NCBI GenBank assembly: GCA_963737655.1
Contig: CAVTTN010000002.1
Coordinates: 1,664,001-1,728,000, forward strand
Length of the DNA: 64,000 nt
Direction: 5' to 3'
From: an uncultured Planctomycetota bacterium
GTDB lineage: Bacteria > Planctomycetota > Planctomycetia > Isosphaerales > Isosphaeraceae
Shown: one piece after another, positions 6,001 to 12,000 of the stretch
Layout: every line of letters begins with the position of its first letter
Numbering within the stretch: the stretch's first letter is position 1
Made by a program: the position numbers

Positions 6001-9000
6001 GATCCCAGGAGCCTCCCGTGACTCGGCGACTCCGCCCCTTCCCCGGCGTCCTGCTCGCCCCGGCCGCGGCGCTGGCCCTGATGGCCTCCGGGTGCTCGGA
6101 CTTCTCCTCGCCTCCGCCGCCGGTCGCCCCGGGGTCGTCCCCCGGTTCGATCTCGGGCGCCGTCGGCGACGGCTCCTCGGGCCTCGACCCGGAGGGGCGG
6201 AAGACGATCATCGACAACGTCTTGAAGCTGATCCGCGACGCCGCGACCAACGCCGGCGGCCACAACTTCGACATCGCCACCGAGAACCTCAACGACTACT
6301 TCGCCCCCGAATCGGCCGACCGCTTCGCCATCCCCGAGGCCACCCTCGCCTATCTGAAGACCCAGAAGCTCCCGCCCGACACGATCCAGGCCGTCGCCGA
6401 CCGCCGGTTCCAGAAGAACGACGGCCGACACATCGAGGACAACGACGTCTACCACGCCATCGCCTCCCGGGTGGCCGGCGAGAGGCTCGCGGGCGAGGCC
6501 GACGACCTGCCTCGGGTCCGCCGCCTGTTCGACTGGACCGTCCGCCACGCCATGCTGGTCCCCTCGGGCTCCCTGGTCCCCTCCGGGATGCCCCAGGCCC
6601 AGGCCCGGCCATATGACGTGTTGCTCCGCGGGATGGCCACCGAGGATCGCGGCGATTGGTCCGAACGCGGCTGGCTGTTCCTGACCCTCTGCCGGCAGAT
6701 CGGCATCGACGCCGGGATGATCGCCTACACCATCCCGATCCGACCTCACGGCCCCCTGGCGAAGTACGGGACCAGGCAGTTGACCGACCGCCTCCAGGCC
6801 CTGGCCGGCACCGGGGTCCGCGACCCCATGCCCTGGGCCTGCGGCGTCCTGATCGACGGCAAGGTCTACCTGTTCGACCCCCGGCTCGGCGTGGAAATCC
6901 CCTCCGCCGACGGCCGATCGGTGGCGACCCTCGAAGACGCGGCCACCGATCCGACCGTCCTGGCCCGGCTGGACCTGCCCGGCCGAGGCTACGAACCCAC
7001 CCGGATCGACCTGGCGAGCCGGCCGGTCCACGTCCTCCTGGAATCCAGCCTCGGCAGCCTCTCCCCCCGGATGAAGCTCCTCCAGGAGGCCCTGACCGGC
7101 AAGAACCGGATGAGCCTCTACCGCGACCCGGTCGAGCAGGCCGAGGCGTTCCGCAAGGCCCTGGGCCCTCGATGCGCCGGGGTGGACCTCTGGTCCCTGC
7201 CCCTGACCGTCGAGTACCTCCTGTTCCACGACGGCAACTTCACCGCCGCCACGCTCTACCCCCTCCAGTTCTTCGAGTCCCGATGGCCCCTGCTCTCGGC
7301 GAGGCTGACGCAGCTCCGCGGCGACCTGCCCGGCGCGATCCTCAAGTACGTCTCCTTCCGGTTCTCCGACGACACCTACGAGGCCGACGGCCGGACGAGG
7401 GTCCCGCAGAACGTCCAGCACGTCCTGGACATGTTCGCCACCTATTACCTCGCCCTCGGCCAGCTCGACAAGGGGGACCGCAAGCAGGCGGAATTCCTCT
7501 TCCGGGAGACCAGGCGGCTCCTGCCCGAGCCCGTCCGGGGCCAGCCCTTCACCATGTTCGGCTGGGGGGCCGAGACCAACCTCGGCCTGATCTGCCTCGA
7601 CGCCGGCCGGACGGCCGAGGCCATCCACTTCCTGACCATCGAACAGCCCACGGCCCAGGCCCACGGCAACCTCGTCCGGGCCCGAGAGCTGATCTGGCAA
7701 GACCCCTTCGCCACCACCCCAAGCCAGGCCCAGACCGGCCGATAAGCCGCCGAAATCCTCGCGGATCGGACGCGTTCAGCCCGTCGAATCGCGGTCCCTG
7801 TCGGGTCCGCTCTTGCGGACCTCTTCGATCTCGCATCATCGCGAAGAGGTCGACAAAATCCGCGATCCGACCCGCTCAACAGGAACCTCGGACCTTCGGC
7901 GGGCGGCACGGGTCGAACCCGACCCAGGGCACCCGGCGCGAGGAGTCGGAACGGACCGACCCGACCAACCCCCGACCCGGCCAGGACCGTTCGAGCCGAG
8001 GGCCTCGCCTCGCGACGAACCCCGGACACCGACCGACCCTCGGCCCATCGCCGTCCGAACCCATCCCCGGCCCTCACGTCCCACCCCCGATCCCACGAAT
8101 CAAGATCCCGACCCCCACGTCCATCCTCGCCAATCCCTCCGAACCAAACCATCGAGACCGCACCCCACCCCCGATCACCCAATCCCGCCACCACACCCGA
8201 CCAACCTCCCGAACGCCCCCTCACGCCCCACCCCAAACGGTCCACCCATTCCGACGAAAACCGGCGACGATTCCCCAAAAATTCACTCGACACAAGCCGT
8301 TCCAGCATCCAGCTTTGCCGGTCAAAACCAAACGAATTCTCGGATCGGAACTCCTGCCCTGGCAACAGTGACTGCGCGCCAGAAAACCCTGGAAAAACCG
8401 CCCTCCGGCGCAGTTTTTCGGGAAAAAGTGTCGTCAAGTTCCTCCAAATCAACGGTCATGCACCTCTAGCCTCGAGAAAAGTTGAGCAATCCAAGAAATG
8501 AGTAGAATCCAAATCAATAAATCGCAAAACATCGGCAAAATGGACGCTCGCCAGCCCGCAAACCCGACCCCACCCGCTCCTCCCCGGCGGATTTCCCGGA
8601 AGCCCCAGACCCCCCAGGATCGCAAGCCCCGGGAACCGTCGAGTGAGCCCTCAGAAATCAAAATTTGGGTGACATGCTCACGTCTTCGTAAGAGTGGATT
8701 CGGCCGGGTTCGAATAGAAGACATGCCTACGAAGACGTGAGCATGCCATCCGACCAAAGAAAATCCTTGCAAGGCGAACTCGCCGTCGGCAAAATCAACA
8801 ACCGGCCCGAGATTATCCATCCGAAACGACGTGATAAATCACGTCGTTTCGGACGCATAATCCCGCAAATTCGGGGATTCTGCGTCACTTTCGATGTCTA
8901 CTTCATGTTAGGCGGCTCGGCAACCGGTCGAGCCGGGGAGGGGGATGCGATGCCCGTTCGGCCGTTCGCGCCTCGTCGCCGTGCCGGTCGTCGCGTCGCC

Positions 9001-12000
9001 GTGCCGGTCGTCGCGTCGCCGTCGGCCGCGCCCCGCGTCGTCGCCGCCCGGGGTGGCGCGCGTGGTCGCCGCCGGCGGTCGTGCCCCGCGCGGTCGCGCC
9101 GCCTCTTCGTGAACTCTTTGGCTGGGAACGGCCATCGACGCGCGACACTACCCCAACCCCAGGCTTTGTGGCCGGGCAGCGGCGAGGTCCGGGTAGCAAA
9201 CCGACGGATTCAAGAGCGGCGGACGAGGCGCGGGCCGAGAGGGGAGTCGGTTACGCTTGCAGTCTCTTCGACGGGAACATCCCCGCGAGTCGGCTCGCGG
9301 GGCGTCGCCAATGACCGGATCACGACCTCTCGGGCCAGGCTAACCTACGGGCAGGGAGCACCAAGGTGGAGACGGCCGGGAGGCCCGCGCCACACTCAGG
9401 CTACGCCGCGCCGGGTCGGCGGGCAAGTCGTCCCCGACCCCCGTTCACGCCCCGTCGGGAGCGGACGAAGGCCGCAGGATGGTTAACCTCGCGCTGCAGC
9501 GGACCCCACCCGCCGCATCGGTTTCTGGTAGATTCAAGGTCGCTCGTGCGGGTGGGTCCGCTGAGCTTGGCCGTTAGGCGGCTCAGGAGTCGAAGCCTTC
9601 GGTCGTGCTCGTCGTCGGCCTCGCCGGTCGCGCCTCGGCTCGACGACGCCATCGGTCGGGCCCCTGGAGTCGGCCTCGGCGGTGGTGCGCGTCGTCGCCC
9701 TCGCCGGCCGCGCCCCCGAGGTCGGGCCCGTCGGCCGGCGCCCCCTTGCCAACGCCGTCGGTCCGTGCCAGGATCGTCGGTGTCGGCGCGTGGGGCGTCG
9801 CCGGGCGCCGCCTAACCCGGCGCTGCAGCGGACCCGGCCCGCGGTCGACGATCACTCTCCTCTCAATCTCGCCGGGCGCGGGCCGGTCCGCTGAGCTTTG
9901 TCGTTAGGCGGCTCAGGAGTCGAAGCCTTCGGTCGTGCTCGTCGTCGGCCTCGCCGGTCGCGCCTCGGCTCGACGACGCCATCGGTCGGGCCCCTGGAGT
10001 CGGCCTCGGCGGTGGTGCGCGTCGTCGCCCTCGCCGGCCGCGCCCCCGAGGTCGGGCCCGTCGGCCGGCGCCCCCTTGCCAACGCCGTCGGTCCGTGCCA
10101 GGATCGTCGGTGTCGGCGCGTGGGGCGTCGCCGGGGCGCCGCCTAACCCGGCGCTGCAGCGGACCCGGCCCGCGGTCGACGATCACTCTCCTCTCAATCT
10201 CGCCGGGCGCGGGCCGGTCCGCTGAGCTTTGTCGTTAGGCGGCTCAGGAGTCGAAGCCTTCGGTCGTGCTCGTCGTCGGCCTCGCCGGTCGTGCCTCGGC
10301 TCGACGACGCCATCGGTCGGGCCCCTGGAGTCGGCCTCGGCGGTGGTGCGCGTCGTCGCCCTCGCCGGCCGCGCCCCCGAGGTCGGGCCCGTCGGCCGGC
10401 GCCCCCTTGCCAACGCCGTCGGTCCGTGCCAGGATCGTCGGTGTCGGCGCGTGGGGCGTCGCCGGGGCGCCGCCTAACCCGGCGCTGCAGCGGACCCGGC
10501 CCGCGGTCGACGATCACTCTCCTCTCAATCTCGCCGGGCGCGGGCCGGTCCGCTGAGCTTTGTCGTTAGGCGGCTAGGAGATGACGTCGCCGGAAGCACG
10601 CACAATCCGACGACCCTTTCGATGGAACGGCCGATCTCGCGGCGGGGCGTTTATGGCTTTCCTGCGGATGTCGGTCCTCGGCCTCACAGGCGTCATCGCA
10701 ATGGTCGCCCTCGCATTGGCGTCTCTTCGCTACTCGACGCCGAACGTGGCGCGATGGAGCCTGACGGCGGTCTTCCTGATCCACGGGCTCGCGATCCTCG
10801 CCGCGATCTATCGACGTGGGGCGACTCGCGCCTTCTGGCTGGGCTTTGCCCTGATGGGCGGGGGCTATCTGGGCCTCTCCTCCGGCTCGTGGACGCTCAC
10901 CCAAAAGGAAGATGACTTGTACAAGAATGGATTCTTCGTGGATTTCGCCGGCGTTCACGGCGCGGTGCGTGAACCGGCCCCGCTCGGACACTGGCTAGGT
11001 ACAACGGCCCTCCTCGACTCGCTACGCATCGGGATTCAGATCGACAACGGCACCGGCTCGCCCCCGAACAGGCTGGAAGGATTGTTCGACTTCGATCGCA
11101 GGAGAAGTGCCATGCTCGCCGCGTTAGACCGGCCGCTTGAGATGCCGTTTCCACGAGAAACTCCGCTCGATGACGTGCTGAATTACATCAAGGTCTCGAC
11201 TCGCACCGCGGCCCTGCCGGACGGGATCCCGATCTACGTCGATCCGATCGGGCTGGTGGAGGCGGAGAAGACGATGTCGTCGGGCGTGAGCCTGGAAGTG
11301 AAGGGCATCCCGCTTCGGAGGTCACTGCCCCTGATCCTCGGGCAGGTCGATCTGGCGTGCGTCGTTGATGCCGATCTTGTGACGATCACCAGCCGTACCC
11401 GCGCCTCGGTGACGGACCGCGTCGAGGCGTTTCGCCGCATCGGGCACAGCCTATTCGCCTTGATATTCGCCGTCATCGGCGGGGTTGCTGCTTGTACCCT
11501 AAGGACGAAGCCTGAAAGATCCACCCACGCCGCCTCCCCGTGAACTCTTCGCGCCGGCGGTTCGGCATCGGTTGATACTATGTGGGCGTGATCATCGATC
11601 GGCCCGCATCCCCCCCGGCCCCCGCGACGACGGGGACGGCCCGATCCGGCTCGGCGGGGCTTGCGGCCGGGCGCCCCGCCTCCGACCCGTCGCCCTCACG
11701 ACGGCGGCGACGGCGGCGACTTCGCCACCAGCTCGTAGCCCAGCGACCTCGCCTTGCGCCGCAGCGAACGCTCCTGCTTCCGCCTCACCTCCGCCTCGTA
11801 CTCCGCCAGCGACCTCGACACGTACTCCTCGCCGTGCCTGAGCAGCCGGTACACCAGCCGCGACAGCTTGTGCGCCGTCGCCGTGATCGCCCCGCGGCCG
11901 CCGATCCGGCCCTTGATCCGCCGGTAGAACTGGCCCGTCGCCGTCGCCGTCCGGCCCGCCGCCTGCGCCGCCATCCGCAGCGCCTGACCCACCCGGTTCT

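Follow-up and report, generated by a model that had tools for sequence, protein, structure and literature searches.

Positions 8746–8913 of the window, the 64,000-nucleotide stretch analysed (C2:1664001–1728000; window position = contig position − 1,664,000), are best read, with moderate confidence, as an integrase-less platform copy consisting of attI and part of the intI leader, and as one of several array heads of this kind. Identical cassettes stand exactly at such docks, which suggests that the one IntI still serves attI copies from a distance. For the wider picture of a "distributed integron", with one integrase gene and several attI entry points over a 7.6-Mb chromosome, sequence comparison points to about even chances.

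The complete integron lies 5.1 Mb from the window attI copy, measured from intI. The locus C2:6777–6794 kb contains both an integron-type tyrosine recombinase gene and an adjacent attC array opposite to it. IntI (318 aa; C2:6777126–6778082, minus strand) scores 475 bits against TIGR02249 (cut-off, 265 bits) and spans profile positions 1–313 of 315, indicating that it is full length; PF00589 and PF13495 are matched as well. The linked array comprises 19 attC profile matches (6778515–6794015), all on the plus strand. A tblastn search of the genome with IntI finds no second integron integrase, only XerC/D-like matches of 35–37%. The claim of the earlier note that the genome has one integron integrase is therefore upheld, with a single intact intI genome-wide.

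The docking site in the window is a 168-nt copy, on the plus strand, of the intI-proximal attI region, recognized by blastn, by an attI profile (E = 2.7e-58), by alignment and by its junctions. Its crossover box, GTTAGGC, occupies 8907–8913, with G|TT at 8907/8908. Further copies were sought by blastn of window 8735–8915 against the genome and then with a profile of the six full copies. The full copies are 95.5% (1969492–670), 95.1% (intI-proximal, 6778123–284), 92.3% (283668–822), 86.2% (5884752–910) and 81.6% (1121627–470, minus strand) identical to the window attI, and partial copies are located at 5881623–676 and 5876294–334. All copies named under the earlier heading of six attI sites and one integrase are thus re-found, at 81.6–95.5%, and the range then given for the finding, window 8050–10600, is correct. 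The profile detects, in addition, a decayed copy (6361573–719, minus strand), a deletion variant without the big palindrome (4846964–4847052), which heads the array at 4849 kb, and a weak match that is a possible deletion variant (851069–156). Genome-wide this makes six full copies and one decayed copy, besides three possible deletion variants and one fragment. The attI copies are 84–96% alike, and all six full ones end in GTTAG(G/T)C, beyond which the DNA differs at each. Only the copy at 6778 kb adjoins intI, 31–41 nt from the start codon; the others show the G|TT junction without intI. The copy at 1121 kb had been taken for an orphan, but it is followed by a cassette whose homologue stands first at 4847 kb, and a 55-nt attC-like short site, found by regular expression only, lies at 1119344–398. 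A search of metagenome contigs for the attI core found none.

Relatives show a similar architecture. The TIGR02249 cut-off is passed in 15 of 41 genomes, and seven relatives were tested, each with its own intI-proximal 300 nt as query. Extra full copies of the own attI region are present in three of the seven, most of them without an intact intI alongside: four further copies in G023, each of which runs to GTTAG(G/C)C and diverges beyond it, three in G013, together with partial ones, and two in G021. G012 has three partial matches, two of which are followed by attC-like sites. No extra copy of the attI region is found in the remaining three relatives tested (G016, G032 and G036).

Within the window attI, the crossover-proximal core of 47 nt (8860–8906, plus strand) is nearly invariant among copies. 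The six full copies average 96.7% pairwise identity over these last 47 nt versus 82–83% over the 99 nt upstream, and conservation is lower still, at 65.6–78%, in the adjacent 0.6-kb element. Homogenisation, in place of selection, could in part account for the conservation of the core. A long hairpin or palindrome with arms of ~24 nt (8811–8862) folds as single-stranded DNA at −26.5 kcal/mol (z −8.6) for the bottom strand and −21.0 kcal/mol (z −7.3) for the top strand, and compensatory changes are seen between the seven copies compared. Upstream of the hairpin, a candidate promoter directed towards the cassettes (TTGCAA–17 nt–CAAAAT; 8767–8795, plus strand) was identified by eye; it matches 8 of 12 consensus positions, which is below the threshold of the promoter scan, and the scan does not report it.

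The window attI heads an array of nine attC sites (9481–17743) and no integrase, and tblastn with IntI matches nothing in or near the window. The array is accordingly a CALIN, meaning clustered attC sites that have no integron integrase (Cury et al. 2016, PMC4889954). Cassette 1 (666 nt; 8908–9573, attC 9481–9579) is 99.85% identical over 664 nt to cassette 9 of the intI-linked array and includes a ~400-nt attC-adjacent module (9100–9495). Cassettes 2–4 (9574–10565; attC 9811–9909, 10142–10240 and 10473–10571) are three tandem copies of a 331-nt cassette. Cassette 5 (10566–13429; attC 13335–13435) carries a 1.9-kb IS110-family element (~11528–13436) with its transposase on the minus strand (11696–13048; PF01548 and PF02371; NF033542, 252 bits). 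The element has five copies, every one inside a cassette and adjoining an attC; with its DEDD transposase and its insertion beside attC, the copy in cassette 5 belongs with the attC-targeting IS110 elements. Cassettes 6–9 (13430–17743; attC 14086–14184, 15242–15341, 16135–16232 and 17645–17743) complete the array, and none of the four ORFs scanned in them has a Pfam match. All nine cassettes are on the plus strand. For three window attC sites, the bottom strand forms a hairpin of −24.9 to −35.4 kcal/mol (z −3.3 to −6.6) that contains single-base bulges and pairs GCCTAAC with GTTAGGC, as in the canonical attC fold with its bulged bases. Across the genome, 89 sites match the attC profile at E ≤ 1e-3; 79 of them are on the plus strand and 10 on the minus strand, where ~65, all but three on the plus strand, had been counted before.

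Cassettes shared between distant arrays carry the case for use in trans. A two-cassette block of 1004/1005 nt, with one mismatch and one gap between its two copies, occupies positions 1–2 at the window attI and positions 9–10 of the intI-linked array. The copies are alike precisely from G|TT onwards, and what lies to their left (attI in one case, the attC of cassette 8 in the other) is unrelated, so homologous recombination is ruled out on that side. The 331-nt cassette is present in 10 copies, 99–100% identical, in four arrays (283, 1672, 1969 and 6778 kb), although local assembly errors are possible in arrays packed with such repeats. It is the first cassette at both the 1969-kb and the 6778-kb attI, where the second cassettes differ. 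In the array at 283 kb, cassette 1 equals cassette 5, with 100% identity over 274 nt. Since shared cassettes are 99–100% identical whereas the attI copies are 84–96% alike, cassette traffic is younger than platform duplication. Where shared cassettes stand inside an array, exchange between attC sites would be a sufficient explanation, with no use of attI, and the 331-nt cassette at the 1969-kb attI may stem from a gene-conversion tract bounded within the 47-nt core on one side and within attC on the other. The earlier proposal of secondary platforms served in trans thus gains indirect backing from shared cassettes with exact junctions, but a count of six active docks would be an overstatement, because no shared cassette stands first at the more diverged copies (5884, 1121 and 6361 kb and the deletion variants). 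Besides the master attI, three docks at most appear to be backed by such footprints.

The same data could be read as the remains of dead platforms: attI copies no longer used, with the shared cassettes due to attC × attC exchange or to events before intI was lost. N-terminal traces of intI stand at two other array heads (6862 and 819 kb), both in the expected divergent orientation. At C2:6863306–6863423, IntI residues 5–29 are 64% identical and 7 of 9 residues match in the stretch 36–44; at 819243–275, 8 of 11 residues match. These remnants bear out the caveat in the earlier note that the copies may come from duplicated integrons with lost intI. Decayed and deleted copies exist (6361, 5876, 4847 and 851 kb), some of the extra attI copies in G013 and G021 abut truncated intI pieces, and Cury et al. 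(2016, PMC4889954) count integrase loss among the ways in which CALINs arise. However, at three intI-less attI copies that are themselves so much less alike, the first cassettes are 99.4–100% identical to copies elsewhere; the 1004-nt block starts, on its left, at the exact attI crossover; and the 47-nt core is kept although identity in the flanking DNA has dropped to 82% and 72%. We consider it unlikely, on this evidence, that all copies are relics.

A second feature of the array heads is a C-rich, gene-free element of 0.6 kb, in the window at 8051–8678 (plus strand; nhmmer match 1672051–1672678, profile positions 22–641), where G+C is 0.592 and GC skew −0.257 for window 8001–9000. The seven places previously listed for it are all re-found by blastn, at 72–79% over 496–684 nt. 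These long copies belong, as its full-length members, to a dispersed intergenic repeat family that is specific to the species and has 55 profile matches at E ≤ 0.01, and the conserved 14-nt box of the family occurs 60 times in the genome; the box in the window (8427–8440, AGTGTCGTCAAGTT) has two changes relative to the family consensus, AGTGTAGTCAACTT. Between the element and attI lies a REP-like palindromic repeat of ~70 nt (8672–8746), the palindrome being readable in the sequence, with ~50 further blastn matches on both strands (query 760–836).

The element had been proposed to be the docks' shared promoter, leader or structured RNA, functionally replacing intI. Its placement is in line with such a role: of the seven long copies, five precede attC arrays and share the strand of the cassettes, with attI directly downstream at 283, 1672 and 1969 kb and the first attC ~0.7–0.9 kb downstream at 818 and 6864 kb; diverged members lie upstream of attI at 5876 and 1121 kb; and the right part of the element has an A+T-richer stretch with conserved TTGA.CAAT ... 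GGAAT. Nevertheless, the element represents one subfamily of the dispersed repeat, it is oriented at random with respect to the genes around it, no conserved ORF is found in it, and its fold is not significant (z ~−0.7 and −0.85 for the two strands). Rfam gives nothing at gathering score in the whole window, and the two matches at E ≤ 1 in 6500–12000 are at chance level and outside the element. The promoter scan gives no cassette-facing site, and the long copies at 4893 and 1950 kb have no attC in the 7 kb scanned around each. At the 6862- and 819-kb heads the intI remnant stands between the element and the cassettes; an ancestor with complete intI would thus have had the element facing the 3' end of that gene. 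The relatives with several attI copies lack the element. Such a role is improbable, and, if a dock needs a promoter, the putative TTGCAA–17–CAAAAT inside attI is the better candidate. It is still less probable, and in our view barely credible, that element and attI form a mobile unit, a non-autonomous transposon that spread the docks. All seven long copies share a left boundary (≤10 nt apart by blastn) and a right end, their left flanks are unrelated, and the similarity order of the element copies agrees with that of the attI copies. However, terminal inverted repeats or target duplications are not seen by eye in alignments of the seven long copies and 35 profile matches, array tails have no common end, four long copies lack attI, and the element–attI junction varies by locus, both in the kind of REP (three occur) and in the end point within the intI leader. 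In addition, element copies are only 66–78% alike, which argues against a recent burst.

We favour the platform-copy explanation, which would run as follows. The platform would have been duplicated, with later loss of intI. At the younger copies (1672, 1969 and 283 kb), IntI would recognize the 47-nt attI core and GTTAGGC. Its partner substrate for recombination with the core would be the folded attC bottom strand carried by excised cassette circles. Cassettes would thereby enter at G|TT and become first in line not only at the intI-linked attI but also at remote docks. The older copies (5884, 1121 and 6361 kb; deletion variants at 5876, 4847 and 851 kb) are probably decaying and bear no sign of recent use. 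The 0.6-kb element would have neighboured the ancestral platform by chance and been copied along, outside the recombination machinery. If so, cassettes could be captured and set first in line at several loci at once, CALINs here would be working secondary platforms, neither passive stores nor wrecks, and counts of intI genes would underestimate the active integron platforms per genome.

The 0.6-kb element resembles BOX, ERIC, REP and MITE, which are families of dispersed intergenic repeats: it is intergenic and modular (short, core and long forms), it is confined to one species with tens of copies, and its orientation is independent of neighbouring genes. By their general description it differs in that no terminal inverted repeats are seen, the copies are old (60–80% alike) and the 14-nt box is nearly invariant. 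Integron mobilization units consist of a defective integron between two MITEs; in them, as at the heads described here, a small non-coding repeat accompanies an integron that is defective or lacks intI, but here one element stands at the head, none at the array tails, and inverted repeats are not seen. The attG sites described in a preprint by Loot et al. (10.1101/2022.09.11.507474), genomic secondary insertion sites for cassettes, explain arrays away from intI without integrase loss. However, attG sites are presented there as unrelated short sequences, whereas the heads here are 82–97% copies of the 160-nt attI region, which points to duplication, rather than de novo insertion, as their origin. 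The window array is like a CALIN in its nine attC sites, the lack of intI nearby and the presence in the genome of a complete integron with the same attC type. It differs from CALINs as characterized in Cury et al. (PMC4889954) in that arrays of the window type keep a copy of the genome's own attI and the first cassettes bear an attI × attC footprint. The attI search of IntegronFinder covers classes 1–3 only (PMC4889954), and the sections of that paper dealing with CALINs do not record whether attI is generally present in them. A further parallel is a Xanthomonas preprint (10.1101/2025.06.18.660453), which states that CALINs are mobilised in trans by a sedentary chromosomal integron. In both systems one IntI would act on cassettes of distant arrays, with the difference that the statement in the Xanthomonas preprint concerns excision from CALINs, whereas we propose insertion at remote attI copies, which would provide several entry points instead of one.

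All attI copies named in the earlier note are recovered by blastn with window 8735-8915 as the query, at 82-95.5% identity (the window is the plus strand of C2:1664001-1728000, and window positions are contig positions minus 1,664,000, not 1,632,000). The window copy, attI-1672, spans 168 nt (8746-8913), with GTTAGGC at its 3' end. The copy beside the sole intact intI, attI-6778 (C2:6778123-284), lies 31-41 nt from the intI start codon. IntI is a full-length integron integrase of 318 amino acids encoded on the minus strand (C2:6777126-6778082), and it scores 475 bits against TIGR02249 (cut-off 265). 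The claim that this is the only integron integrase of the genome holds: tblastn finds no second one, and the other matches are XerC/D-like (35-37%). A profile built from six full attI copies and searched genome-wide returns a decayed copy that has lost the crossover box (attI-6361, 6361573-719), a deletion variant without the internal palindrome that heads a three-attC array at 4849 kb (4846964-4847052), and a third, weakly matching deletion variant with a weak attC after it (851069-156); E-values of this profile and of the attC profile come from models built on the same genome's own copies. The partial copy at 5876227-334 has the same type of deletion as the 4846964-4847052 variant. The region 5876-5893 kb has three attI-like sequences in a 9-kb stretch, separated and followed by cassette arrays: a deletion variant (5876.3 kb), a 3' fragment with the mutated box GTGGGGC (5881.6 kb), and a full copy (attI-5884, 5884.8 kb). 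An exact 34-nt pattern of the attI core has 0 matches in metagenome contigs.

The aligned attI copies are divided into three zones: leader, middle, and core. The leader (first 20 columns) has a mean identity of 49%, with likeness only among copies that retain the intI leader. The middle zone is 82-83% identical and includes a long hairpin (window 8811-8862), and the core, the 47 nt preceding GTT, is 96.7% identical. The hairpin has 24-27 paired positions and is found at the equivalent place in six other attI copies, with compensatory changes between copies (for example, CCG/CGG in attI-1672 versus GCT/AGC in attI-5884). In attI-6778, attI-1672, and attI-283, the G.T mismatches of its bottom strand make that strand 6-7 kcal/mol more stable than the top one. 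This strand bias, behind which lie only about three independent changes, is suggestive. The hairpin part is exactly missing from up to three attI-like deletion variants, of which the one at 851 kb is weak. A cassette-facing promoter-like sequence, TTGCAA-17 nt-CAAAAT, is visible by eye at 8767-8795; it agrees with 8 of 12 consensus positions and falls under the scan-tool threshold. A scan of 7700-9700 for sigma-70 promoters and terminators finds no cassette-facing site, and its single weak promoter-like site, on the minus strand (8365-8336), is not kept in the other copies.

By an attC profile made from the genome's own sites, the window has nine attC sites, the first at 9481-9579 and the last at 17645-17743. 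Genome-wide the profile gives 89 matches with E<=1e-3, 79 plus-strand and 10 minus-strand, in eleven arrays and five single sites. The bottom strands of three of the window's sites fold into the canonical hairpin, with GCCTAAC-GTTAGGC pairing and bulged bases (z -3.3 to -6.6). The cumulative GC skew of C2 is weak, with its minimum near 6.51 Mb and its maximum near 2.42 Mb. Plus-strand arrays lie on both putative replichores, indicating that array orientation does not simply track replication direction.

When 77 cassettes delimited at G|TT are compared all against all, footprints of insertion appear at some of the remote attI copies. Over 1004/1005 nt, with one mismatch and one gap, cassettes 1 and 2 at attI-1672 (C2:1672907-1673910) match cassettes 9 and 10 of the intI-linked array (6786457-6787461). 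Identity starts precisely at the crossover; to its left stands attI in one place and the attC of cassette 8 in the other, and the two have nothing in common beyond the box. Because the left flanks are unrelated and identity begins at the crossover, this left junction cannot come from homologous recombination. It does arise when a two-cassette circle is excised and then inserted by attI x attC recombination, or when the reaction runs the other way. Ten copies of a 331-nt cassette, 99-100% identical, are spread over four arrays (283, 1672, 1969, and 6778 kb); attI-1969 and attI-6778 each have one in first place, with different cassettes in second. In the attI-283 array, cassettes 1 and 5 are 100% identical, as expected if a cassette was reshuffled to the first position. 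The attI copies bearing shared cassettes are 84-96% alike and the 0.6-kb elements next to them 66-78%, indicating that cassettes moved long after the platforms were duplicated. The proposal that the remote arrays are secondary platforms served in trans by the single integrase would thus apply to attI-1672, attI-1969, and attI-283, but no footprint is found at the more diverged copies (attI-5884, attI-1121, attI-6361, and the deletion variants). We infer activity of the remote copies from one assembly, in arrays rich in near-identical repeats.

With ten copies in four arrays at 99-100% identity, the 331-nt cassette is therefore unusually successful and possibly selfish. Three of its copies stand in tandem at window 9574-10565, with no convincing ORF. 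None of the six cassette ORFs scanned has a Pfam match. Cassette 5 of the window array contains a 1.9-kb IS110-family element (11528-13436) that adjoins its attC; the transposase (11696-13048) is on the minus strand, antisense to the cassettes. The genome has five copies of this element (95-99% identity), every one within a cassette, and we take it to resemble the attC-targeting IS1111-attC group. A non-coding module of ~400 nt also adjoins attC sites (9100-9495, 13699-14187, 14862-15346, and 15753-16234). Its 28 copies (86-100% identity) are confined to cassette arrays, and it is common to 29 of the 77 cassettes. Over 373 nt, the module resembles (72%) the non-coding stretch from the start of the IS110-family transposase to attC (~13083-13440), and may be a non-autonomous derivative of that element, possibly its guide-RNA end.

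The earlier note had allowed that the copies could be relics of duplicated integrons that lost intI, and as regards their origin this caveat is supported. A genome-wide tblastn search gives a marginal IntI match at C2:6863306-6863380 (E 0.05). When the search is confined to array heads, residues 5-29 of IntI match there at 64% identity (E 1.2e-4); collinear with them come residues 36-44, with 7 of 9 matching. In the 6862-kb head, this trace (C2:6863306-6863423, plus strand) has the element copy of 6864 kb on one side and a three-attC array on the other. It runs opposite to the cassettes, in the position expected of a truncated intI. The corresponding place in the 819-kb head (C2:819243-819275, minus strand) has a shorter one, which covers residues 34-44 with 8 of 11 matching. 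At attI-283, attI-5884, attI-1121, and attI-5876, homology reaches about the intI start codon; at attI-1672 and attI-1969, it stops ~40 nt short of it. Together, the N-terminal traces and the leader homology point to platforms that look like duplicates of an integron head from which intI was lost. Both the 6862-kb and the 819-kb head have the 0.6-kb element and no recognisable attI copy. The region before their first cassette is unlike the main attI and ends in GTTAGCC, and the two heads may be what is left of a second integron lineage. The arrays have no common right end, as their tails share nothing consistent; tblastx for paralogous genes left of the elements gives only short, non-collinear matches, and the left flanks are unrelated.

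The 0.6-kb element upstream of attI-1672 (8051-8678) is C-rich, A+T-richer, and gene-free (G+C 0.592 and GC skew -0.257 over 8001-9000). The seven copies reported for it are real but do not make up a separate family: the profile derived from them gives 55 matches at E<=0.01, only seven of them full length. The remaining matches comprise the core (profile positions about 88-405) or just a ~100-nt module ending in a nearly invariant box. This box, AGTGTAGTCAACTT, occurs 60 times in the genome with <=1 mismatch (28 forward and 32 reverse; 0 for a reversed-pattern control). Among 40 relatives, three of the same genus included, it is found at background level only, and its 18-nt form has 8 single matches, at or below chance, in a 185,579-species collection that may omit the genome's own records. 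As judged with a crude gene caller (ORF + GC3), the family matches lie between genes and run with or against the neighbouring genes about equally often. The genome also carries REP-like palindromic repeats, and a REP of some kind is present at every junction of an element with attI or with an intI remnant. One of a first kind (8672-8746, 75 nt) has ~50 further blastn matches genome-wide; one of a second kind (gggtccgctcttgcggacctcttcg..., 7803-7850) is also found after the element copies at 6864, 818, and 4893 kb.

The association of the element with integrons exceeds chance. Of its seven long copies, five stand at the head of attC arrays, on the strand of the cassettes; upstream of attI-5876 and of attI-1121 there are diverged members, and 228 nt past the intI stop there is a short one. 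The earlier note had seen in the element a promoter, leader, or RNA of the attI docks. In the 6862-kb and 819-kb heads, the intI remnant sits between element and cassettes, so that, in the intact ancestor, transcription started rightward from the element would have run antisense into intI, and the element is absent from relatives with several attI copies. We therefore reject such a role, which we regard as improbable. The simplest reading is instead that a repeat of this family lay next to the ancestral platform and was duplicated together with it; the order of similarity among element copies agrees with that among attI copies. Rfam has nothing relevant in window 6500-12000 (E<=1) or in the whole window (gathering score), and no conserved ORF keeps its position across the seven copies. 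A structured-RNA reading was dropped on the folds, which are not significant (mean z -0.71 for the plus and -0.85 for the minus strand; single-sequence folds, mononucleotide shuffles); RNAalifold predicts no pairs in the 55-copy module alignment. The 228 nt from the repeat module (6776.9 kb) to the intI stop are not homologous to the right 240 nt of the element (z -1.2 to 2.7), and the 330 nt left of that stretch are homologous to the long element (z 6.8-11.8). That the long element once exactly abutted the intI stop would follow from spacing alone, and we do not make this claim.

The TIGR02249 cut-off is passed in 15 of 41 genomes, this one included. We searched the 300 nt upstream of intI from seven relatives, each in its own genome; these are mostly drafts, in which missing copies mean little. 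Five belong to the same family. G023 has four more copies (84-87%); each closes with GTTAG(G/C)C, beyond which the sequences diverge, and next to one of them lies a piece of intI containing a stop codon. G013 has three full, one near-full, and three partial copies with the same query end point, and G021 two more (93-94%); in each of these genomes, one copy abuts a truncated intI. G012 has three partial matches, with attC-like sites behind two, and no further copy is found in G016 or in the two genomes from outside the family (G032 and G036). In G013 and G021, the truncated pieces come from the N-terminal part of intI, a hint that breakage within the gene recurs at one point. The extra copies indicate that the multi-attI architecture is not peculiar to this genome, and since the approach worked in three of the seven relatives, it generalises at least within this family.

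CALINs, attC clusters without an integron integrase, are about as common as complete integrons; how they arise (by integrase loss, rearrangement, or secondary-site insertion) and whether they are active are matters of debate. In the present genome this can be asked directly: the intI-linked copy defines attI and leads to its paralogues, and the junctions show which copies were recently used. In Cury et al. 2016 (PMC4889954), where CALINs were defined, attI is described as unknown for most integrons, and hence as something that cannot be searched for; a CALIN and an integron may remain functionally linked, and loss of the integrase in one of several integrons is a possible origin. Insertion at secondary genomic sites is another, according to a preprint by Loot et al. 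(10.1101/2022.09.11.507474), and a Xanthomonas preprint (10.1101/2025.06.18.660453) states that CALINs are mobilisable in trans. In the literature searched, covered in part and outside subscription journals, we found no description of CALINs with own-genome attI copies and insertion footprints, nor the wording 'second attI' or 'attI-like'. If the remote copies are active, an integron can have several 'first positions' in separate expression contexts, its capacity for cassette capture is not bound to the intI locus, and surveys should seek paralogues of each genome's own attI. Among known systems, we file this one as a sedentary chromosomal integron whose head has been multiplied without its integrase.
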